From: Clostridia bacterium | GTDB lineage: Bacteria > Bacillota > Clostridia > UBA1212 | Direction of reading: 5' to 3' | Assembly: GCA_017444825.1 (NCBI GenBank) | Contig: JAFSVU010000020.1 | Location: forward strand, 4,374-68,373 | Length of the DNA stretch: 64,000 nucleotides | Translations under genes and position numbers: made by a program | In this document: in pieces, positions 25,993 to 64,000 of the stretch | How the letters are laid out: every line of letters starts with the position of its first letter | Position numbering within the stretch: position 1 is the stretch's first letter | The notes under the pieces: generated by a model | The model's input: only the letters and a program-made list of their open reading frames with translations | Databases searched by the model: none | What the model was told of the DNA's origin: nothing

Positions 25993-26094
25993 TAAAAAAG
26001 CAAGAAAATATAGGTGAAAAGGCGTCGGGGTTCAAAGAAGTCCCGGCGTCGTTTTTTATGGTGTTTTGGCATCCTTGCAGGTAAATATCCACTG

Positions 26095-26123
26095 TTGACA
26101 ATATAACGGTTTGCCGTTATAAT
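26095..26123 (+). promoter_or_regulatory. Promoter TTGACA-17-TATAAT for the XRE regulator gene
   Basis: ttgacaatataacggtttgccgttataat, followed by AGGTGA RBS and ATG 26146. Confidence 0.5.
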
Positions 26124-26145
26124 TGTTGGGAGGCAGGTGAATACC

Positions 26146-26715
26146 ATGAGTGTAAGCGAAATCATAAGTCAAAAACATTTATCCAAATACCGTGTTGCTA
26201 AGGACAGCAACATTCCGTATATGACACTTAATGACATTTGCAACGGCAAAGCTCGTCTCGATAAATGCAGTGCAGATACGGTATATAAACTTGCGAAAGT
26301 GCTTAACGTATCTATGGAGGAACTATTGGAACCGTATGTTTCGCCTCGTCCGTCTTTCGATCTGTTTAAAAGCAACGTATGTCACAGGCTCAAGGAACTT
26401 GGCGATATAGATTTCTTGATTGACACTATAGAAAGCGATGACATCACGAAGTATTATAAAAGATCATGGTACCCGGAAAGCCTTTATCTGCTGGCTATGG
26501 TGGACTACATAAGTCGAATCAACAATGTCCCGATCTGCGATGCCTACACCGATATCCGCAGAGCAAAGCTGAAAGATACTGTTTTTCCGTCAAGCGTCAT
26601 CGCCGCCTCAGCTGTAATGAGAGATGAAAGTATTCTGGAAAGAGCAAAGAAAGAATCGATTCCGGAATTCATGCGATTTAATATCGTAGAAAGCGATGTG
26701 AGAAATGTAGATTAA
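26146..26715 (+). CDS. XRE-family HTH transcriptional regulator with an uncharacterised C-terminal domain
   Basis: HTH segment LSKYRVAKDSNIPYMTLNDICNGKARLDKCSADTVYKLAKVLNVSMEEL. ATG 26146 preferred over GTG 26137. Confidence 0.6.
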   Translation: MSVSEIISQKHLSKYRVAKDSNIPYMTLNDICNGKARLDKCSADTVYKLAKVLNVSMEELLEPYVSPRPSFDLFKSNVCHRLKELGDIDFLIDTIESDDITKYYKRSWYPESLYLLAMVDYISRINNVPICDAYTDIRRAKLKDTVFPSSVIAASAVMRDESILERAKKESIPEFMRFNIVESDVRNVD

Positions 26716-26717
26716 AA

Positions 26718-26745
26718 AGGGGCCTTGAGGCCCCTGATCTATATC
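26718..26745 (+). terminator. Hairpin AGGGGCC-ttga-GGCCCCT after the regulator gene
   Basis: Perfect 7-bp stem. The downstream tract is not T-rich, so it is a weak intrinsic terminator. Confidence 0.35.
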
Positions 26746-26778
26746 TGTTCGAATACTTTGTAATGTCTGTGACTGTTA

Positions 26779-26952
26779 CCGGTCAGCTGAGTTTATTTCT
26801 GGCCACCTATTACCTTTTACCTTTTACTTATTACCTCTTAGCGGCACTCCCTTAAACCTTTACTTATTACCTGAGCGGCACTCCCTTAAACCTTTACTTA
26901 TTACTTTGTCCGGCACCGCTCTAACTAAGGGGGCACCCCTTCCGCAGGCACT
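26779..26952. repeat. Structured intergenic repeat locus C (reverse orientation)
   Basis: ttaccttttaccttttacttattacctcttaGCGGCACTCCCttaaacctttacttattacctgaGCGGCACTCCC...ttgtccggcaccgctctaactaagggggcacccc...ggcacttctt. Confidence 0.8.
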
Positions 26953-26954
26953 TC

Positions 26955-27515
26955 TTACTTGCCAAACAGCATCCCTTCCTCAAGCTTATCCGCCGCATTG
27001 CCAAGGCCCAAAGCCCGCAGGATCTCATAAGAAAAAGCCAAAGCCGTGCCGGGGCCTCTTGATGTGATGATATTGGCGTCGCGGACCACTCTGTCTTCAA
27101 CGTAGGACCCGCAGGATTCCATCTTTATCGAGCCCGGATACGAAGTTGCCTTGCGGCCGGAAAGCAGCCCTGCCCTCTCCAGAACGCAGGGAGCGGCACA
27201 TATTGCGCAAACAAGTTTGCCGTCGCTGAAAAAACGCTTGACGCACTCGATAACGCCGTCATTGTCTCTCAAGAGATGGGCATTGGGGAGGCCTCCCGGA
27301 AGAACTACCGCATCATAGCCTATGCCAGCCTTCTCCTTTTCGCCAAAGGGTTTGTCGGCTCTGACCCCGATGCCGTGGGAGCCGTTCATAATGTCATTTC
27401 CGGGCACCGAGCAAAGGGTTACCGAAACGTTCGCCCTTCTCAGCACGTCCACCACGGAAAGCGCCTCTATCTCTTCAAAACCTTCGCAGCAAAGGACCAA
27501 TACCGATCTGTTCAT
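26955..27515 (-). CDS. DJ-1/PfpI (ThiJ) family protein
   Basis: MNRSVLVLCCEGFEEIEALSVVDVLRR... with nucleophile elbow AICAAP. GGGAGG RBS before ATG 27515. The track's longer N-terminus is rejected. Confidence 0.8.
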   Translation of the reverse strand: MNRSVLVLCCEGFEEIEALSVVDVLRRANVSVTLCSVPGNDIMNGSHGIGVRADKPFGEKEKAGIGYDAVVLPGGLPNAHLLRDNDGVIECVKRFFSDGKLVCAICAAPCVLERAGLLSGRKATSYPGSIKMESCGSYVEDRVVRDANIITSRGPGTALAFSYEILRALGLGNAADKLEEGMLFGK

Positions 27516-55264: not shown

Positions 55265-55819
55265 ATGGAAAAAAGTCAGTCAAAAGCAGATCCGGTCACG
55301 ATCGTAAAAGTCGACCGGGTTGAAATAAGGGAAACGACAAAGGCGGATCTTAAGGACGTTCAGAGGCTCTGGGCAGACGGCGACGTCATGAAATTTGTGG
55401 GGTTCCCGGATGGGCTCCGCAACACTGACGAGGAGATGGAGGACTGGTACGGCTGGATCGACGCTGGCAGGCCCCTTATCAACCACTTCTCGGTTTTTGA
55501 GAACGGAGTCTACTCCGGTGAATCGTTTTACGAGATCAGCAGGGAACACGGAAACTATGCAGCTGTTGACATAAAGCTTTTCGGTTTCGCAAGAGGACGG
55601 GGCATCGCCGCAAAAGCGCTGTCCTTCGCCGTCAATGAGGCATTCAGAAACGGTGCGGAAAAGGTCTGGGTGGACCCAAATCCCGAAAACGCCAAAGCCA
55701 TCGCCCTCTACAAGCGCTTGGGCTTTGAAAAAAAGGAAAGGCCATCATTCACGGTTTCAAGCGACTGGGCCCCCTCCTCGGTCTATATGGAGCTTGGCAA
55801 AGAAAAGCATCGCCAATGA
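55265..55819 (+). CDS. GNAT-family N-acetyltransferase
   Basis: GGAGG RBS, ATG 55265. ARGRGIAAKALSFAVNEAF...LYKRLGFE acetyl-CoA binding motif. Confidence 0.75.
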   Translation: MEKSQSKADPVTIVKVDRVEIRETTKADLKDVQRLWADGDVMKFVGFPDGLRNTDEEMEDWYGWIDAGRPLINHFSVFENGVYSGESFYEISREHGNYAAVDIKLFGFARGRGIAAKALSFAVNEAFRNGAEKVWVDPNPENAKAIALYKRLGFEKKERPSFTVSSDWAPSSVYMELGKEKHRQ

Positions 55820-55930
55820 TTCGGCCTCGCACCCGTCTGCAAGTCCGGTGTGTCATGCCGCGATGCACCCCACGGGCCCTAAAAAAGATATTGACACAAA
55901 ACCGGTATTTTGTTATACTCTCAAGGCCGT

Positions 55931-56008
55931 GGTGGCTATAGCTCAGTTGGTTAGAGTACCAGGTTGTGGCCCTGGGGGCCGTGGGTTCGAGTCCCACTAG
56001 CCACCCCA
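55931..56008 (+). tRNA. tRNA-His (anticodon GUG) with G-1 and encoded CCA
   Basis: Acceptor stem GTGGCTA/TAGCCAC with extra 5' G paired to C73. Anticodon loop TTGTGGC. T-arm GTGGGTTCGAGTCCCAC. 3' CCCA. Confidence 0.85.
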
Positions 56009-56055
56009 TAGAAAAAGCGAGATGAACTGTGTTTGTCTCGCTTTTTCTATGGGGT
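56009..56055 (+). terminator. Terminator hairpin within a long inverted repeat that includes the tRNA 3' end
   Basis: ctagccaccccatagaaaaagcgaga...tctcgctttttctatggggtggctag is a ~28-bp perfect inverted repeat. The inner stem AAGCGAGA/TCTCGCTT is followed by TTTTC. Confidence 0.6.
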
Positions 56056-56096
56056 GGCTAGTTTGGTGGAGCGAGAATACACTAATAAAGGGGCCC

Positions 56097-56145
56097 CCGA
56101 AAGTGCTTGCACTTTTGGGGAGAAGGAGATGCGAGCGATGCAAAT
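56097..56145 (+). repeat. Hairpin+SD motif copy 1 (CCCCGAAAGTGC-tt-GCACTTTTGGGG-AGAAGGAG)
   Basis: 12-bp stem with one G-U, then AAGGAG and ATG codons. Three copies in the island (copies 1 and 2 by sequence, copy 3 by structure). Confidence 0.6.
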
Positions 56146-56215
56146 GCAGCCTTTCAAGAGGCGATCTTTTGTATTTCTTGGAAGGCGGAATCGGCAGCGC
56201 TCGCAGCGACGCGTA

Positions 56216-56230
56216 CCACTAGCCACCCCA
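56216..56230 (+). repeat. Direct repeat of the tRNA-His 3' end (att-like)
   Basis: CCACTAGCCACCCCA is identical to 55994-56008, and 17 of 18 bases match with the flank included. Confidence 0.6.
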
Positions 56231-56356
56231 AGGTGTTTAGACTACAAATATATGCACACGCAAAATCGGCTTTTTTTGCTTATTTTTGCTATCAAAAGGC
56301 CCAAAATTTTAGTGCGAAATAAAAAGATACAAAAGCCCTTTTTCGAAGGGAACATA

Positions 56357-56405
56357 TAGGGGACCCCGAAAGTGCTCGCACTTTTGGGGAAAAGGAGGCG
56401 CAGAG
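56357..56405 (+). repeat. Hairpin+SD motif copy 2
   Basis: GGGGACCCCGAAAGTGCTCGCACTTTTGGGGAAAAGGAGgcgcagagacgcaaacgaag. Confidence 0.6.
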
Positions 56406-56535
56406 ACGCAAACGAAGTGGTCCAAGCGAATACAATCTTATAATGCTTGAAACACGCAGTCGGCGTCTCTTGCGGTGACGCATTCGTACGCTATTGATCA
56501 AAGTCCCAGGGCTGTTTTTGTTATCAACAAATTCG

Positions 56536-57129
56536 TTACTCTTCGGAATAACTTCTCAAAAAATGATCGAATCCGAAAGACGATATCTTTTCAAGGATTT
56601 CGGAAACCGCCTCGGCAGACGGAGAAAAACCGTCGATGATCCATTTTCTGTAAACAGCGATCCTTCCCGCGACGGCAAATGTGAGGATCATATCGATTTG
56701 CGCAGGCGGAATCGACGTTTTTGAATTCAGAGTTGCCTTTAGCTTCTCCCTGACCGTATAGTTGATTTTTTCAAGAAAATTGATATTCTGATTGGCGAGC
56801 AATATTTTTGAATAAAACCCAATCTCAGACATTATCTCTTCGTTGACTTTTTCTAAAAACTGTTTCCGGCCGTAGATAAAATCGTCAAGATCTGTGTTCT
56901 CAAGAAGAACTTTGAACCTCGACAAAACAATATCCTCTATATCAGCTTCAATGTCTGCAATGGTCTTATAGTGCCGGTAAAAAGTCGTTCTGTTGATATT
57001 GCTTGCCTCGCACAAATCATTTACAGAGATGTAATCGCGATCTCTTTGTGACAGCAATTCCGCATACGCCTTTATGATTTCATCCCTTGTGGCTCTTGCC
57101 CGAGGATCTGAGCAATTCCTGTATAGCAT
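56536..57129 (-). CDS. TetR/AcrR-family transcriptional regulator
   Basis: Start MLYRN after GGGAG RBS. HTH ISVNDLCEASNINRTTFYRHY. Confidence 0.7.
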   Translation of the reverse strand: MLYRNCSDPRARATRDEIIKAYAELLSQRDRDYISVNDLCEASNINRTTFYRHYKTIADIEADIEDIVLSRFKVLLENTDLDDFIYGRKQFLEKVNEEIMSEIGFYSKILLANQNINFLEKINYTVREKLKATLNSKTSIPPAQIDMILTFAVAGRIAVYRKWIIDGFSPSAEAVSEILEKISSFGFDHFLRSYSEE

Positions 57130-57427
57130 CTTTTTTCTCCCAAAAAACATGAAATTCTCAACTTCTGCAACACTTTTCCCGGAAAAACGTTGCACAACTC
57201 CCGGTTAATTCATAGTATAATGTACTTGATGGTGAGTGTCAATGCAGGCCGATTGTTTTTTGCTGAAGAAATATATATGTGATCTGTGTGGCTTGGAAAC
57301 AGCTACAGGATCTCTTGATGCTGGTGTTAAATCCGTGGTGAAAAGACAACTCACTCCAATTGGTTTGTACAACGCTTTAATAAAGGATGCGTAGTTTCAC
57401 AAGAGCAAAGATTGGGTTTAGGAGATA

Positions 57428-58153
57428 ATGCAAATGAAATATAGAGTAGTAATTATTATAATGTGTGTTTTAATCTGCCTATGTGGCTGCTCGCCTAGCC
57501 ATTCTAATTTGCCACAAGACAACATATGTGTCAAATGGAAGTACCATCTCTCACCTTACCAACGCTCATCGTTTGTCTACAATGAGATTGAATATAGATT
57601 AGTAGATTCACAATGGGAAATTGATGAAGCCTCAACCCAAAAAATAGGTACCCTTTTGACGGGGGGGACTGGAGGAAGTTCGGCCCCGATAGTTGTATTT
57701 GGCATCCCAGTAATCAGTGGTTATCGAGATGCATATACATTTAGGTCTAATGAAGAAGAAATAAAGTTTATTGCGACCGCGGAAGCTATTTGGGTTGATT
57801 CTAGAATCAATTTCGACGACAAGGAAAACTTATCATTTTATAAACTCGGCATAATTATTGATTCGATATGTGACGAGAATAGTAATGAGTTAACGGCAGA
57901 AAAAAACTTTACTTTCGAAGAAATGATTGATAAGTCAGTTATTATCGAACAACAGGAGATTGCTACATGTTCATATAGGGTAAGACTATACTTAGAAGAA
58001 GTGAAGGGTTTGTTTTGTTACATTGAAATTGTTCGCATAAATGACTTACTTTATACCCCATTACAAATGTGTGCTTACATTAGTGGACAAGGACAGCAAT
58101 TAGTCTTACTAACAGACGAATGGACGAAATGCATCCTAAACCTTATCACTTGA
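57428..58153 (+). CDS. Hypothetical lipoprotein (AT-rich island cargo)
   Basis: MQMKYRVVIIIMCVLICLCGCS lipobox. RBS AGGAGATAATGCAA-ATG. Confidence 0.5.
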   Translation: MQMKYRVVIIIMCVLICLCGCSPSHSNLPQDNICVKWKYHLSPYQRSSFVYNEIEYRLVDSQWEIDEASTQKIGTLLTGGTGGSSAPIVVFGIPVISGYRDAYTFRSNEEEIKFIATAEAIWVDSRINFDDKENLSFYKLGIIIDSICDENSNELTAEKNFTFEEMIDKSVIIEQQEIATCSYRVRLYLEEVKGLFCYIEIVRINDLLYTPLQMCAYISGQGQQLVLLTDEWTKCILNLIT

Positions 58154-58723
58154 AGTGGTCTGGTATGGAAAAGTATTAGTGGGTAATGTGCTATACTATA
58201 CATGGCAAGGATGAGTAGAAAAATGCCAGGCAACAATTGGAGTGTGATGAAAAAGCCTTAGCTGTTTCGACAACGCAGTGTGATGTTTTTTCACCAAGGT
58301 AACGCTACCATCAGGCCCGTGTGGGGGCGACTCCATACAGGTTCAAGGCGGCGGCTCCGCACCAAATGGGACAAATCCGAACTCTAAGCCGATTGGCGAA
58401 GGGTTCGGATTTGTCGTTTATTTCGGCGATCTGAATTTGACCTCAGGCAAAAACAAACCAAATTGAAAAACGGAGTTCAAGAAAATGAATTTGAACATAG
58501 GTAAAATCGGAGTCTGGGGACTCCGGCATTATGAATTTCTTGAATATAGCGCACCAAACTGGACACTTCGGCCGCACTGATTGAACAGTTGCGACGCAGA
58601 AAACTGAACACCCTCGTCGTTTGAAACTGAACAGTATCGTCGGAGAAGTTGAACGCCGAAAATACAGGCGGTAATATGTTGCTACACGCAAGAGCGTGAA
58701 TACAACATAAGGAGGTCAAGAAT

Positions 58724-58861
58724 ATGACCAATTACCGTGAGATTCTGAGACTTAAAAAACTCGGGCTCAACAATTCCCAAATTGCTCAACCTTCACATTT
58801 TTATACTAACATTTACAACAAGTACCACTTGAAGAAGATTTATCGAGAAGAAGCCGCTTAA
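58724..58861 (+). pseudogene. Truncated transposase N-terminal HTH fragment (IS21/IstA-like)
   Basis: AAGGAGG RBS then MTNYREILRLKKLGLNNSQIAQ..., stop after 45 aa. The pattern resembles IstA-type N-terminal HTH. Confidence 0.35.
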
Positions 58862-59116
58862 ACAATTGTTTGATAGAATAAAAAAATTGAAAAATCCCAC
58901 AGCCTTGTGTGCTGAAGGGTGCTTAGTCATACCCTAAAATTAGGACGTTTTGCCTGTTAAGTGATAAAAACGATTAGATCAATTCATGAATGAACAAAAC
59001 ATGAAAAAGCCAGCAGTTTTTGCAGTAAAGCAATTACTTGCCGGCTTTTTTCACTGGGCTTTTTTTACAGCCCCTTTTCATGTGACCTAGCGTGGGACTC
59101 GAACCCCTTGGGCCCC

Positions 59117-59165
59117 CCGCAAAGTCCACGACTTTGTGGGGAAAAGGAGCCGCAGCGGAACAATT
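59117..59165 (+). repeat. Hairpin+SD motif copy 3 (stem variant with compensatory changes)
   Basis: CCCCGCAAAGT-ccacg-ACTTTGTGGGG-AAAAGGAGccgcagcggaacaattgaag. Arms differ from copies 1 and 2 at several positions including a 1-nt indel, yet an 11-bp stem is still maintained (compensatory changes). Confidence 0.55.
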
Positions 59166-59291
59166 GAAGTCTATTGACATTGGATATAATCGAAATATCG
59201 TTGGCAATGAAGTGTGAACGCTTGATATGTGGCTTAATTTAGTATATAATTTAGTCACAGCAACACATGCTGATCTTGGAGGTATTTCACT

Positions 59292-59546
59292 ATGACGATT
59301 GTCCCCATGCGTGATCTCAAAAACACTGTTGAAATTGAGCGTCTCTGCGCTGAAGGCGGCCCTGTATTTGTAACAAAAAACGGATACGGAAGGCTCGTTG
59401 TGATGGACATTGAGTACTACGAAAAAACAATGGGCAATATCTATGAAGCCGGACTTGTGAATGATGGCCTTTCTGATCTCGAAAACGGCAGGACAATTGA
59501 CGGCGATTCTGTAAAATCAAGGATAAAGGGAAACTATGGACTCTAA
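59292..59546 (+). CDS. Phd/YefM-family antitoxin (orphan, convergent to doc)
   Basis: MTIVPMRDLKNTVEIERLCAEGGPVFVTKNGYGRLVVMDIEYYE. Upstream TATATAAT -10. Confidence 0.65.
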   Translation: MTIVPMRDLKNTVEIERLCAEGGPVFVTKNGYGRLVVMDIEYYEKTMGNIYEAGLVNDGLSDLENGRTIDGDSVKSRIKGNYGL

Positions 59547-59619
59547 ATATTCCTATCGCTTTACCGAATAAGCATAATAATTTCAATGCAGCAGCCACTT
59601 TCCTTGTGCAGTTATGATT

Positions 59620-60000
59620 TTAACCATCAATATGGTTTTTTATCCAGCTCAACAGATCCTCATAATCTATCTTTCCCGAGGCAACGCCAAGGATGATATT
59701 GGTTAATTCCTCCTGTGTATAGGTTAATTCAGTATCGTTTACAGCCAGGAAAACTAACATCGAATGCGCACCTATTCTTTTGTTGCCGTCAATAAACGCA
59801 TGATTCTTTACAAGACCGAAGCACAGACGTGCAGCCTTCTCAATCACTGTCGGAAACAGTTCTGTGCCATCAAAAGACTGGAACGGTGCCGAAACCGCCG
59901 AATCAAGAAGCCCTTCGTCGCGAAGTCCGGCAGCTCCGCCAGTTTCCCGCAATAGGTGTTCATGGAGCAAAAGAACCTGTTTCTTGGTGATTATCTTCAT
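59620..60000 (-). CDS. doc: Doc/Fic-family toxin
   Basis: Fic motif HAFIDGNKRIG. Confidence 0.8.
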   Translation of the reverse strand: MKIITKKQVLLLHEHLLRETGGAAGLRDEGLLDSAVSAPFQSFDGTELFPTVIEKAARLCFGLVKNHAFIDGNKRIGAHSMLVFLAVNDTELTYTQEELTNIILGVASGKIDYEDLLSWIKNHIDG

Positions 60001-60251
60001 TTTGAGAGCACCTCATATGCCTGTCGGTTCTTATCGATCAAAGACTTAGATACTGACAGCAGCTCCTCGTCGCTGACTGTGACGGCATTGTTTGTCTTGC
60101 GAATTTCAAAAGGGATACCGTTGTAATCAACAGAAGACCTCAAAAAAACCGTTATGGCCGAGGACATATTTAGCCCAAGTTCGGCAAACAGTTGCTCCGC
60201 CCTCTTTTTCAGATCCTCATCAATTCGAATATTTAAGTTTGTTGTTGCCAT
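59997..60251 (-). CDS. RelB/DinJ-family antitoxin, translationally coupled (ATGA) to doc
   Basis: MATTNLNIRIDEDLKKRAEQLFAELGLNMSSAITVFL (ribbon-helix-helix). AAGGAG RBS. Confidence 0.65.
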   Translation of the reverse strand: MATTNLNIRIDEDLKKRAEQLFAELGLNMSSAITVFLRSSVDYNGIPFEIRKTNNAVTVSDEELLSVSKSLIDKNRQAYEVLSK

Positions 60252-60391
60252 AGAAATCAACTCCTTTCGCAATATCATTGTACTGAAATCCGAAAGAATA
60301 GTCAATACATTGTAAAGATATTTTCTTTACAATGAGAAGCATTTATTTCAAAAACGCAATTTTACCAATCTATTTTTATTGAAAAACCAAT

Positions 60392-60488
60392 ACAAAAATG
60401 CTACCATACCCGCATAATAGCAAAATAATAACATTTGCCTTTGAGCATAATTAAAGTTTGCCCGAGGGATAGTCAAAACACATCTCGC
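60392..60488 (+). repeat. 97-bp direct repeat, copy 1 (upstream of ATPase cassette)
   Basis: acaaaaatgctaccatacccgcataatagcaaaataataacatttgcctttgagcataattaaagtttgcccgagggatagtcaaaacacatctcgc. One mismatch to copy 2. Confidence 0.9.
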
Positions 60489-60512
60489 CCCAGTTTAAAA
60501 ACAAAAAATCCG

Positions 60513-60541
60513 TTGATAATTTCTAAAAATATGTTACAATA
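60513..60541 (+). promoter_or_regulatory. Promoter TTGATA-16/17-TGtTACAAT for the ATPase cassette
   Basis: ttgataatttctaaaaatatgttacaat. Imperfect palindrome AAAAC-N2-GTTTT just downstream. Confidence 0.45.
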
Positions 60542-60599
60542 GCCTTGACAACAAAATCAAAAACGCAAAACACGTTTTTAAATCGCGGAGGCATTATAA

Positions 60600-61753
60600 T
60601 GAAACTTCTCAGATTTACAGCTCAAGGGCTACCGCTTTTCAAAGAAAAGCTCGATATTTGTTTTTACGCAACTCAGCGCATTTCGGAGGAACAAAAAGAT
60701 CTGCTCTATCCGCTGTTCTCAAATGTTTACCTAAATACCACAAGTGGCTTCATCGGAATCAATGCTTCCGGAAAAACATCGGTACTGAAAGTCATCCTTC
60801 TGATTCTCGGGATACTTAACAATGAGCCGATAAACTACATTGAAACCAAAGATATCCTTGGCGATGCAGATAACGTTGTTATAAATACGTACTTCTACTC
60901 CGATAAAAGCAAAGAAGTCTGCAGATTGGAAACAACTATAACGGGAAACAGGGCTAAACCTGACGGAATAGTCTACAGCATTGTTTCTGAGAAACTCTGG
61001 TCTAAGAGGACAGATGAAATAGCCACCCGCAAGAGCATGCTTGATTTTGAAGGCAGAGAACCCGTAATGATCAGAAGCGGTCTGGAAGACTACCTCTCCG
61101 AAGATGTAAGCATTCTGATAGCAAGGAACAAGAGAATCGGCGAAAGAGTAAACTTTGTAAATCTTCTTCAGTTCACAAATATAAATGTGCTTCCTTTCTC
61201 TGAAGATATCCCGTCAGAGGTTATAACCTTTCTTGATCCAACAATAGAAAGCCTGCATTTTGGCGAACAGGATAACAAAACCAATATCGGGCTGAAATTC
61301 ATTGGTAAGGAAGAAATTATTCTCAGCAACCCGGTAGAACTCAACAACTATCTCTCTTCAGGCACTGTGAAGGGAATGATCATATTTACATTGGCGCAGG
61401 AAGTGCTCCGGGATGGTGGTTACCTTGTTGTAGATGAAATCGAGAACCATTTCAACAAAGAAATCGTCACAACATTGATGCGTTTCTTCATGGATGCGAG
61501 GTTTAATAAAAATGGCGGAACTTTGGTCTTCTCGACGCATTATCCGGAGCTGCTGGACGAGTATGATCGGAATGACAGCATCTATATTACAAGAAACCGC
61601 AACGGAATCACTGTGGATAATCTGTCTGCGATCCTCAAGCGAAATGATATTAAGAAGAGTGATGCGTATCAAAGCGGATTTCTCGAAGGAACCACCCCTG
61701 TGTATGAGGCGTATATCCGGCTAAAGAAGAGCATTGCAAAAGCACTCAGTTAG
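60600..61753 (+). CDS. AAA_21/ABC-type ATPase (defence-associated family type)
   Basis: GGAGG RBS, MKLLRF.... Walker A GINASGKTS. Signature-like LSSGTVKG. Walker B YLVVDEIENHFN. H-loop VFSTHYPELL. Confidence 0.7.
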
Positions 61754-61762
61754 GAGGCACCA

Positions 61763-62284
61763 ATGGAATTGGCGAAATATAAGGCCTGCATTTGCGAAGG
61801 TTCCGCCGAGCAAGCCATCATTGACGTTCTTCTGGATAATGCACTCCTGATTTTCTCCAGAGAAGACATGCTGGAGGAAAGTGTTATTCGGTGCAGAGAC
61901 GGCAAGCAGTTCGAAGCCAAATATTTGAGAAAAGGCTTTGCAGACAAGATATCTGTTATTCGCGTGCTTGATTCAAGGCGTGAAAACTTCAAACTCAGTA
62001 AAGCATATGAGCAAAAGGTGGATGTCATTAATATTGTCACCGCACCTGAGATTGAGATGTTGATAATTCTGAATGAAGATAAGTACTCAGAATTCAAAAG
62101 ATCCGGAGAAAAACCAAGTGAGTTCTGCAAGAAGCATTTGAAGATGTCGAGTGTGAAGACCTATGATTTTGTGAAAGAATACTTTTCAGATCCGTCTGTA
62201 TTGGTTGCATCGATTAAAGAATATCACAGAATATCGAAAAAACGTAAAGGCGAATATACTTTACTTGAGCTGTTGAAAGATTAG
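61763..62284 (+). CDS. Small partner protein, possible TOPRIM/RloB/DUF4276-like nuclease
   Basis: 173 aa. N-terminal ACICEGSAEQAIIDVLL (Glu motif) and acidic DVINIVTAPEIEMLIILNED. Starts 10 nt after the ATPase stop. Confidence 0.5.
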   Translation: MELAKYKACICEGSAEQAIIDVLLDNALLIFSREDMLEESVIRCRDGKQFEAKYLRKGFADKISVIRVLDSRRENFKLSKAYEQKVDVINIVTAPEIEMLIILNEDKYSEFKRSGEKPSEFCKKHLKMSSVKTYDFVKEYFSDPSVLVASIKEYHRISKKRKGEYTLLELLKD

Positions 62285-62285
62285 A

Positions 62286-62382
62286 ACAAAAATGCTACCA
62301 TACCCGCATAATAGCAAAATAATGACATTTGCCTTTGAGCATAATTAAAGTTTGCCCGAGGGATAGTCAAAACACATCTCGC
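62286..62382 (+). repeat. 97-bp direct repeat, copy 2 (immediately after cassette stop codon)
   Basis: 96 of 97 bases identical to copy 1. Spacing 1894 bp. Confidence 0.9.
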
Positions 62383-62415
62383 AGGCTTTCTGCAAACAGG
62401 ACCGGGAGGTTTTTA

Positions 62416-63423
62416 ATGTCTAAAAAACGATATTCAGTAATTGTGATCGTGTGCATTATTGCATTGGCGATACTCGCAGGGTGCGGTGATGACGACTTAT
62501 CGCCAACGGCAGATCCCACAGTTGAGCTCACACTCGAGCCATCCGCTGAACAATCTACACCCGAGTCAACGGAAGAGCCTTCACCTGAACCAACGATATA
62601 CCTTTACACCCGCGACGGCGACTACATTTATTTCGGCTCCTACCCGCAGTCTGTAGTAACTGACGAAACCCGCAAAGAGTCTCTCACAAACACTGCAGGT
62701 GACACAGGTACCTGGACATCTTACGACTATTACATCGAAGGCGAAGCATCCGACTTCATGGTCTACAAGGATGTAAGCTATGAAGGCGAAAAGTATAGAG
62801 GCGTTTTTTTCACAAAATACAGGCCAATGTACACAACCAACAAATCCTCGGCAGATTACTCTTATCAGGATAACAACGGTTATTACGCCAACACCGTATA
62901 TTGGTTTAAGTATGAACCAATTAAGTGGAAGATATTATCGGAATCTGACGGCGACGTATTTCTTTTGTCAGAGCTGCTGCTTGATTCCCAGGACTATCAT
63001 TATACACAGGATACGATAAACGACTATAGCGCAAATGATTATGAACAGTCTCACATCAGGGCCTGGCTAAATGATCATTTCTACAATACTGCATTTTCTG
63101 AATCGGAAAAAGCCATTATCAAAGAAACACTTGTGGATAACACAAATGATAAGATATTCCTCCTAAGCTATAGCGAAGTTAACAACGGCAAGTACTTTGT
63201 CTTCGATAACAATGCCGTAGTTAAAAAACCCAGTGATTACTCGAAGGCACAGGGCACGACCGTCTACTCCGGAGAAGGTTATTGGTGGTTGCGGTCACCT
63301 GCAAGCACCGGGAGCGTTGCCGCGTACGCTGTCGACTGCGAGGAGAAACCAAATGCCATGACCTACAACGTTAATGCAACTGTGTTTGGCGTCCTGCCTG
63401 CCTTGCATTTAGACATTGGTTAA
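62416..63423 (+). CDS. Hypothetical lipoprotein with Thr/Glu/Pro linker and WWLRSP-containing C-terminal domain
   Basis: GGGAGG RBS, MSKKRYSVIVIVCIIALAILAGCG lipobox. Confidence 0.5.
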   Translation: MSKKRYSVIVIVCIIALAILAGCGDDDLSPTADPTVELTLEPSAEQSTPESTEEPSPEPTIYLYTRDGDYIYFGSYPQSVVTDETRKESLTNTAGDTGTWTSYDYYIEGEASDFMVYKDVSYEGEKYRGVFFTKYRPMYTTNKSSADYSYQDNNGYYANTVYWFKYEPIKWKILSESDGDVFLLSELLLDSQDYHYTQDTINDYSANDYEQSHIRAWLNDHFYNTAFSESEKAIIKETLVDNTNDKIFLLSYSEVNNGKYFVFDNNAVVKKPSDYSKAQGTTVYSGEGYWWLRSPASTGSVAAYAVDCEEKPNAMTYNVNATVFGVLPALHLDIG

Positions 63424-63653
63424 TAACTCCCTAAATATGATTTTTTTGCAGCGCTGATGGAATACATTGGCGCTGTCTTTAAATACCCTTAAATCCCCGC
63501 AAAGCGTCGGCGTTTCAGAAGACTTTCCCGAAATTTGATGTTAGAATATCATTGAATGAAGAAACCAATGGATCGGGCTGTGCTCTTTTATCGGCCCGGC
63601 AGTTTACGAAAAATTCCGGTTTGAATGATCAGAAAGCACTACAGGAGGTTGTT

Positions 63654-64000
63654 ATGAAACGTTTTTTTGCATGTATATGTTTGTTTTTTGCGGCAGTCAT
63701 GATACTTACCGCATGTTCCCCGAGGTTCAATGCGGCAGTTTATGAGGACGTCCACATTGACGAGAGTCTCGGGTTTGAAAGCCGGGCGTTTTTGCTCAAA
63801 AATACCGGTGACGTCGAAGCTCACATCGAGTCCCACGAGACGGATGAGTTTTCAAAGCCTTATTACGGTGACCTGAAAAAGTATGATAGCAAGTTTTTCG
63901 AAGAGAACAGTTTAGCGGTCGTTTATTATTATGACTCCACCACCTCAGCAAAAATATCCGTAAAAGGGATACAGTATAGTGGTGATACCGTCACGGTCAT
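63654..64000 (+). CDS. Hypothetical lipoprotein, 3' truncated by window end
   Basis: AGGAGG RBS, MKRFFACICLFFAAVMILTACS lipobox. Confidence 0.45.
   Translation, partial: MKRFFACICLFFAAVMILTACSPRFNAAVYEDVHIDESLGFESRAFLLKNTGDVEAHIESHETDEFSKPYYGDLKKYDSKFFEENSLAVVYYYDSTTSAKISVKGIQYSGDTVTV

Follow-up and report, generated by a model that had tools for sequence, protein, structure and literature searches.

We analysed a 64,000-nt stretch of Clostridia DNA (hereafter the window) in which a tRNA-His gene, with its His-specific G-1 at 55931, stands where the GC content drops from 0.52-0.55 to 0.38-0.44 (at 56000). The tRNA gene runs into a long palindrome, whose left arm (55996-56022, ACTAGCCACCCCATAGAAAAAGCGAGA) consists of the last 13 nt of tRNA-His and 14 nt of trailer, and whose arms can be extended to 32 nt at 94% identity with two mismatches. 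A preliminary description of this DNA had given the perfect inverted repeat as 28 bp long; the repeat and its 13-nt loop stand, with a length of 27 nt. It had further proposed that the terminator hairpin reuses the tRNA acceptor 3' strand, which we find to be too simple: the inner part of the palindrome, AAAAAGCGAGA...TCTCGCTTTTTCT, is an ordinary intrinsic terminator (GCGAGA/TCTCGC, then TTTTTCT) that stops short of the mirrored tRNA segment. RNA reading through the whole palindrome would sequester the acceptor 3' strand in its fold, computed at -83 kcal/mol (z = -12). A second mirrored piece, TGGTGGAGCGAG, resembles the left flank of the units (see below) in loci L014 and L020 when compared by eye rather than by alignment.

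The recurrence of the last 15 nt of the tRNA at 56216-56230, 208 bp downstream, was described correctly, being an exact match that grows to 21 nt (56210-56230) with 2 mismatches. Sites matching CCACTAGCCACCCCA at up to 2 mismatches number 3, including the mirrored copy, vs. 0.04 expected from shuffles. Enclosed by the direct copies are 207 bp that contain no credible gene and hold the terminator hairpin, the mirrored tRNA end and a structured unit of about 120 nt (Table 1). We also noted that 17 nt within the 3' part of the GNAT gene (55736-55752) recur, inverted and without mismatch, in a phd-like antitoxin gene (59457-59473); the chance expectation for such a match is approximately 0.002 in 9 kb.

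Table 1. Features at the tRNA-His gene and downstream of it, in window coordinates
Feature	Position	Strand	Basis and remarks
Sigma-70-type promoter of tRNA-His	55891..55919	+	Consensus scan, 11/12 matches; TTGACA, 17 nt, TATACT, with TG
tRNA-His(GTG), CCA encoded	55932..56008	+	ARAGORN; Rfam tRNA 68.4 bits
Long palindrome	55996..56062	+	27-nt perfect arms 55996-56022 and 56036-56062, 13-nt loop
Mirrored copy of the last 13 nt of tRNA-His	56050..56062	+	TGGGGTGGCTAGT, exact reverse complement, beyond the terminator T-run
Second mirrored tRNA-end-like piece, TGGTGGAGCGAG	56064..56075	+	Reverse complement of ..GCTCCACCA, tRNA-Ala type
Unit 1	56090..56211	+	Covariance model R1 109.8 bits; fold z = -5.0; covariation
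Direct copy of the last 15 nt of tRNA-His, CCACTAGCCACCCCA	56216..56230	+	Exact; starts 208 nt past the tRNA end
Module M, AGGTGTTTAGACTAC...	56231..56353	+	Homologous to L043 7878-7745 (alignment); begins with a transposase-binding-site-like repeat
Unit 2, paralogue of unit 1 with compensatory changes	56359..56480	+	R1 109.7 bits; alignment
Inverted tRNA-His-like 3' part	59081..59107	+	Reverse complement contains GGGTTCGAGTCCCAC; read against tRNA-His
Unit 3, truncated and diverged	59110..59212	+	R1 40 bits, E = 1.8e-7; variant first hairpin CCCCGCAAAGTC..GACTTTGTGGGG
AT-rich accessory region	56231..64000	.	Runs on to about 64.2 kb in L003, L004 and L005

Units 1 and 2 share a common build, with a 12-bp hairpin containing a G.T wobble (CCCCGAAAGTGC/GCACTTTTGGGG in unit 1), a GGAG motif and a long hairpin of about 85 nt that ends in GCGACG, and the arms of the long hairpin differ between the two by compensatory changes. 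The second unit starts 269 nt beyond the start of the first and has a fold z of -3.8 vs. shuffled sequence. Alignment with the otherwise collinear locus L043, from which unit 2 is missing, reveals a clean presence/absence difference, and also identifies the tail of unit 2 as conserved flank. Farther downstream, the inverted tRNA-His-like part matches the tRNA-His T-arm over 15 identical nucleotides (GGGTTCGAGTCCCAC) before continuing into a diverged acceptor, and the truncated unit 3 next to it is also found in L003, L004 and L005.

A second kind of short module was observed alongside the units, built of three copies of RCATCTWTTTAGNNTGTACA at exact 22-bp spacing, with a terminal ...CGACCACACACC(A/G)CA and inverted partners TGTGGTGTGGTCGATTTAGATG. 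Such 22-bp repeat modules occur in the window (56231-56353, homologous to one that resembles a left end), in L043 (7995-7745 and 6375-6257), L041 (690-800), L044 (9360-9456) and L019 (4297-4340), and a terminator, an inverted T-arm and a unit come after each of them, as they do after a tRNA. They resemble Tn7- or Mu-type transposon ends. We rejected the reading that they are the ends of an intact Tn7-like transposon, as a search for tns genes beside them found none adjoining and one copy lies between core genes.

Downstream of the direct copy, the AT-rich region carries genes for TetR, a lipoprotein, Phd, Fic/Doc, RelB, an AbiLi-like ATPase with a partner, and DUF6273. This bears out the earlier characterization of the DNA as AT-rich and rich in defence and toxin-antitoxin genes up to the window end, as well as the statement that the window lacks an integrase, none of the genes of this region being integrase-like. 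Three loci (L003, L004 and L005) reach 1.8-1.9 kb past the window, where GC is again 55-58% from about 64.2 kb. Comparison with L003 reveals that only 58358-64000 is held in common, the upstream part of L003 carrying instead a type I restriction system, Fic and TnpV. We conclude that the region is a mosaic of small modules rather than one integrase-borne island bounded by the 15-mer, because the overlap with L003 is partial and because an inverted T-arm and unit 3 lie inside the island (59081-59212).

Several further observations concern this region and its counterparts. A 110-nt direct repeat with 95% identity (60379-60488 and 62273-62382) flanks the genes for the AbiLi-like ATPase and its 173-aa partner (60599-62284); it may have arisen by duplication of an upstream region, or it may mark the two edges of a small gene cassette. 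The window (58283-58415) and L003 (7740-7830) part ways at ...GCACCAAA, beside a 21-nt imperfect hairpin at 58370-58415; preceding this breakpoint, the window has a stretch ending in GGCTCCGCACCA with the look of a decayed 3' end of a tRNA or tmRNA. The three independent assemblies of L003 (15100-15286), L004 and L005 all end within approximately 90 bp of one another, at a window-equivalent position of about 65.8-65.9 kb, in the 3' end of a minus-strand gene whose product has the C-terminus ...YELDSKSVSEYIRDINLAKDVADK, which suggests a multi-copy gene; a tblastn search of plasmids with its 24 C-terminal residues gave no hit. Genes for AAA_14-DUF4143 ATPases (L037 2730-4085, L020 5771-7027, L043 2520-3875, L040 7209-end) and for Schlafen/AlbA_2-HATPase_c_4 proteins (L037 5238-6692, L044 9690-11054) repeatedly come first after the unit arrays of different MAGs, and may represent preferred cargo of the tRNA-linked islets. 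Far from the tRNA-His site, a lone GC dip is seen at 26001-27000 of the window (0.43 vs. about 0.52 on either side).

The units belong to a previously undescribed family of folded DNA or RNA elements that, in rumen and gut Clostridia, accumulate behind tRNA genes. Scanning one genome per species with the first-hairpin pattern, we found units in rumen and gut Clostridia MAGs, among them Ruminococcus sp. RUG12790 and RUG13779, Clostridia RGIG10266, an SRR10912533 bin, and Mageeibacillus UBA1212 and UBA1243, and a metagenome scan added nine more loci. Hits of the species scan in Amycolatopsis, Bacteroidota and others were discarded as unrelated palindromes that merely fit the search pattern. With a covariance model (R1) built from 21 units, we obtained 40 matches below E = 1e-8. 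In the alignment of these 40 units 96.2% of cells are paired, a percentage inflated by the fitting of the alignment to R1 itself, vs. 37-46% in slid-partner controls, and double changes are present in 25 of the 32 pairs; an independent MAFFT and RNAalifold alignment reveals compensatory changes in 18 of 32 pairs. Non-Watson-Crick pairs on the tRNA-sense strand comprise 81 G.T vs. 16 A.C, an excess that points to the tRNA-sense strand as the one that folds, whether as RNA or as single-stranded DNA.

Comparison with Rfam 15 (including T-box, ROOL/GOLLD and ribozyme families) over window positions 50-64 kb and L044 7.0-9.7 kb, run with gathering as well as E-value thresholds, returned only the tRNA as a passing match, with nothing else meaningful at E up to 1. 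Similarly, neither a BLAST search of phage and plasmid collections with unit 1 nor a unit-hairpin scan of IMG/VR viral contigs gave a match. Two readings of the fold were considered and dropped: a T-box, suggested by GGGTGG-like motifs facing the tRNA end, given the lack of an Rfam match, and a retron-like element with a1/a2 repeats and a long msd-like hairpin, given the lack of an RT gene. A promoter scan and the locus sequences revealed no consensus promoter ahead of most units.

Across the unit occurrences in uncultured Clostridia we observed an order of parts that is nearly always kept, in which the tRNA is followed by a palindromic terminator right after CCA, an inverted T-arm/3'-end piece, one or more units, and finally the 3' part of that same tRNA, repeated in direct orientation. 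This order was found in the window and in L008, L011, L013, L014, L031, L032, L036, L037, L040, L044 and L045, with tRNAs of six types at the unit loci (His, Val, Gln, Ala with both GGC and CGC, Lys and Ser). The inverted piece follows the terminator at all ten mapped tRNA loci besides the window, as well as in the L044 and L045 cassettes. The direct copies are 11-21 nt long, contain no mismatch and end exactly at the tRNA CCA; they start in the T-loop, between TTCG and AA, or in the T-stem in the His cassettes. The junction position varies by unit type (tRNA position 57, 58 or 63), and the tRNAs are all intact. The cassettes so delimited range from 190 to 430 bp and contain no gene. Exceptions to the shared order include some diverged units beside which the tRNA piece is absent (L012, L046, L047, L042:5529 and window unit 2), and L015, where the unit is present and the direct repeat is absent.

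Comparison of individual parts between loci suggested where they come from. At the tRNA-His gene of another species (L013), we found the long-hairpin type of the window with the tail CGTACCACTAGCCACCCCA, and a mirrored TGGGGTGGCT after the tRNA, behind an unrelated terminator. The mirrored pieces in L011, L032, L037 and L040 agree with the local tRNA in their T-arm part and often differ from it in their acceptor part; they look like 3' parts of related tRNAs, which fits delivery by an element from elsewhere. Terminators similar to one another were found after tRNAs of different kinds, as in L031, L041 and L014, so the terminator moves along with the cassette. We additionally observed a piece of about 60 nt, G[A/T]GAGGGTCGAGGCGTTAAACAAATCATCCGGTGGATGATTTGTAGCCGAGATCG, that always lies between the inverted T-arm and one type of unit (L011 3036-3180; L008, L023, L025, L031, L036 and L044); its inner hairpin covaries (AAATCATCC/GGATGATTT vs. 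AAATCCTCC/GGAGGATTT), and one variant has an insertion of about 35 nt.

Pairs of loci that differ in cassette number provide the most direct evidence on how this arrangement arises. At one tRNA-Val locus, recognized by its common flanking genes, a single cassette in L031 contrasts with 2 in L008, and CGAACCCCCCTATCTCCACCA is present in three identical copies. At a locus running from tRNA-Val to tRNA-Ala, L045 has 1 cassette and L044 has 3, each with its own, different terminator and with a perfect AATCCCCTATGCTCCACCA at every boundary; the cassette common to both is the most tRNA-distal one, and the extra cassettes adjoin the tRNA. On sequence comparison, these pairs point clearly to repeated, polar, site-specific insertion of gene-less cassettes at tRNA 3' ends. 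A search for an empty tRNA-His site via homologues of the flanking GNAT gene found none, the closest homologues being at most 72% identical and not syntenic.

We also searched for an enzyme that could be responsible. Inspection of ORFs as far as about 5.5 kb downstream of the units at five related loci revealed no integrase, and none lies from 56231 to about 65.9 kb (in the window together with L003-L005); Pfam scans of about 40 ORFs near units revealed no integrase, transposase, Cas protein or RT. Likewise, an all-against-all BLAST of neighbouring ORFs, searched for a recombinase common to the loci, gave only housekeeping or cargo clusters. Because no member encodes a protein and no such gene lies within several kb of the examined copies, the mobilising enzyme presumably acts in trans.

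Based on these observations, the 15-nt copy is probably the displaced old end of tRNA-His, and the cassette at this locus a member of a non-autonomous family that inserts site-specifically at tRNA 3' ends, with the junction in the T-loop or T-stem. A cassette (about 56009 to 56215) would have inserted into the 3' part of tRNA-His and pushed the old 3' end 222 bp downstream. Such an insertion would proceed by site-specific recombination, with the cassette bringing a replacement tRNA 3' part along with a replacement terminator right after CCA, the mirrored tRNA 3' piece and the unit with its conserved fold; later arrivals would land beside the tRNA and displace older cassettes outward. We favour recombination of this kind, which is the classical design of tRNA-integrating elements; work on tycheposons reports the same proximal accretion. 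In our preferred version, the cassette would enter as a folded single strand, in which the tRNA end, terminator and mirrored end form a hairpin mimicking the double-stranded target. We infer this mode of entry by analogy; it would account for the adjacent inverted copy, the conservation of the fold on one strand, the lack of a cis recombinase and the irreversible tandem build-up. Counting against the insertion explanation is the occurrence of one scaffold type at at least five different tRNAs, each of which is left intact. The lack of an empty tRNA-His site among the GNAT homologues, the units that have no tRNA piece or direct repeat beside them, and the shift of the junction with unit type also weigh against it.

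Other explanations assign the direct copy a different role. The 15-mer at 56216-56230 could be attL of the whole AT-rich island, with a tyrosine integrase and attR beyond the window, a reading we consider unlikely. The fall in GC at 56000, the cargo of defence and toxin-antitoxin genes and the degenerate inverted tRNA-His T-arm within the island (59081-59107) would all suit it, and under proximal accretion an old tRNA end would indeed adjoin earlier insertions. However, GC is back up at about 64.2 kb, the part of the island in the window contains no integrase, and the joining of 58358-64000 to quite different upstream cargo in L003 indicates a mosaic. The preliminary description had likewise placed an island boundary at the pair of tRNA copies, and had suggested looking beyond 64000 for a third 15-mer (attR) and an integrase; the copies in fact enclose only 207 bp of non-coding DNA, and as far as about 65.9 kb L003-L005 contain neither an integrase nor, with 3 mismatches allowed, the 15-mer. 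Its interpretation of the duplicated tRNA 3' end as the scar of an integrase-mediated insertion holds for the insertion, as the cassette numbers in L031/L008 and L045/L044 attest; an integrase in cis is not supported.

It is also improbable, in our estimation, that the unit is a guide-type RNA in which a scaffold of about 120 nt and a variable 3' tail of 15-20 nt would steer a nuclease or transposase encoded in trans to tRNA 3' ends. One scaffold type does occur with tails that differ and match the local tRNA, the fold is on one strand with G.U pairs and has the tail directly at the foot of the long hairpin, and transposon-end-like repeats lie about 40 bp past such tails in L043. Nevertheless, effector, TnsB/C and Cas genes are absent near every copy checked, most units have no promoter in front, and the tail of window unit 2 is conserved flank; moreover, the tails are 11-21 nt long and stop exactly at CCA, as displaced gene ends would, and insertion scars better explain the perfect repeats in tandem arrays. 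We see a similarly small chance that the direct copy is a target-site duplication, produced by staggered cuts (as by a casposase or Cas1, or as at CRISPR repeats) or by target-primed reverse transcription of the unit RNA. Such a process would explain polar insertion proximal to a "leader" as well as the presence of one family at any tRNA without damage, and the duplication of 15 nt at the extreme tRNA 3' end has the geometry of casposon insertion, but it would leave the mirrored tRNA piece over and would not predict a repeat length tied to unit type, and neither terminal inverted repeats nor a Cas1 or reverse transcriptase was seen. Least probable of all, and in our view very much so, is a non-mobile origin, with the palindrome made by template switching (quasi-palindrome correction) and the copy and units being local duplications or a cis RNA for tRNA-His maturation. 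While the hairpin in read-through RNA would sequester the acceptor 3' strand, and the mirrored His piece is kept in L013 despite a different terminator, the T-run precedes the mirrored segment, so that most transcripts would lack it. The units, moreover, are spread over many tRNAs and several genera-level MAGs, are polymorphic for presence or absence, and have unrelated terminators in neighbouring cassettes.

What is new in insertion by a displaced-end cassette, the reading we favour, is the gene-less folded cassette family; tRNA-targeted insertion with proximal accretion is known already. In Prochlorococcus, tycheposons are elements at tRNA genes that are parted by partial tRNAs, with newcomers pushing older ones away (10.1101/2020.12.28.424599). 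The cassettes share with tycheposons and tRNA islands their location at a tRNA, the partial tRNA copies between elements and the proximal accretion, but differ in being 190-430 bp long, lacking any gene or integrase, containing a folded unit and an inverted tRNA piece, and using one scaffold for many tRNAs. As in islands of tyrosine integrases, the tRNA is intact, and the repeat begins in its T-loop or T-stem and reaches its 3' end; of the other marks of such islands, neither island-flanking repeats nor an integrase next to att was found through about 65.9 kb.

Folded single-stranded DNA is integrated by a recombinase that the element does not encode both in IMEX elements (CTX-phi, TLC) and at integron attC sites, with CTX-phi relying on the host Xer recombinases. 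The cassettes resemble these systems in having two inverted core-site copies by one junction, no recombinase in cis, structure rather than sequence conserved, on one strand, and a tandem, apparently irreversible build-up, and the 81:16 asymmetry of G.T vs. A.C is an indirect hint that they, too, may adopt a single-stranded form. The palindrome can form a hairpin next to the junction, with perfect arms of 27 nt that include 13 nt of tRNA; unlike IMEX and attC sites, the target is a tRNA T-arm/3' end, within a tRNA gene, rather than dif, where XerC/D recombine, or attI, and R'/R'' GTTRRRY boxes are lacking. The units begin with GGAG.. and end with ..GCGACG, and have neither the RYYYAAC/GTTRRRY boxes nor the integrase of integron attC sites.

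Casposons and Cas1-type integration are known to duplicate the last 14-15 bp of a tRNA gene and to build tandem arrays. Both the exact 15-nt duplication of the tRNA 3' end and the tandem arrays have counterparts here, while terminal inverted repeats, Cas1 and a polymerase do not, and the cassettes are 30-fold smaller; the cassette ends, TAGAAAAAGCG... and ...GCGACGCGTA, are not inverted repeats, and no ORF lies within the cassette. With MITEs, REPINs and CIMEs the cassettes have in common that they are short, non-coding, multi-copy, hairpin-forming and moved in trans (REPINs are treated in PMC3116915). They differ from these in their strict association with tRNA 3' ends, their long direct target repeats and their much larger conserved fold. 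Guide RNAs that combine a scaffold with a 3' spacer include the TnpB omega-RNA, Cas12 crRNA and the tRNA-homing crRNAs of type V-K CRISPR transposons. The conserved scaffold of about 120 nt followed by a variable segment of 15-20 nt identical to a tRNA gene segment is reminiscent of these, but no effector or transposase gene is nearby, and the variable segment acts like a displaced gene end.

Genes for tRNAs are classic landing pads of genomic islands, and the elements found there normally bring their own integrase. Here, gene-less folded cassettes fill this niche, with small defence and toxin genes accumulating next to their polar arrays. Annotators should recognise these cassettes, since they give rise to tRNA fragments and to breaks in assemblies. 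More tentatively, and as a possibility that we hold to be the less probable outcome, they may constitute a new class of protein-less mobile elements aimed at the universally conserved tRNA T-arm/3' end by their own folded nucleic acid, acting either as a single strand whose hairpin passes for the target of a host recombinase or as an RNA whose 3' tail or flanks would point an unlinked enzyme to the tRNA. If this is true, one scaffold would be retargetable to any tRNA, and could seed accessory and defence islets behind the tRNAs of rumen Clostridia. Should their mobilisation depend on a host enzyme acting in trans, or on their own folded strand, the cassettes would represent a minimal new route by which tRNA-linked variable regions are shaped, and possibly a retargetable insertion system.
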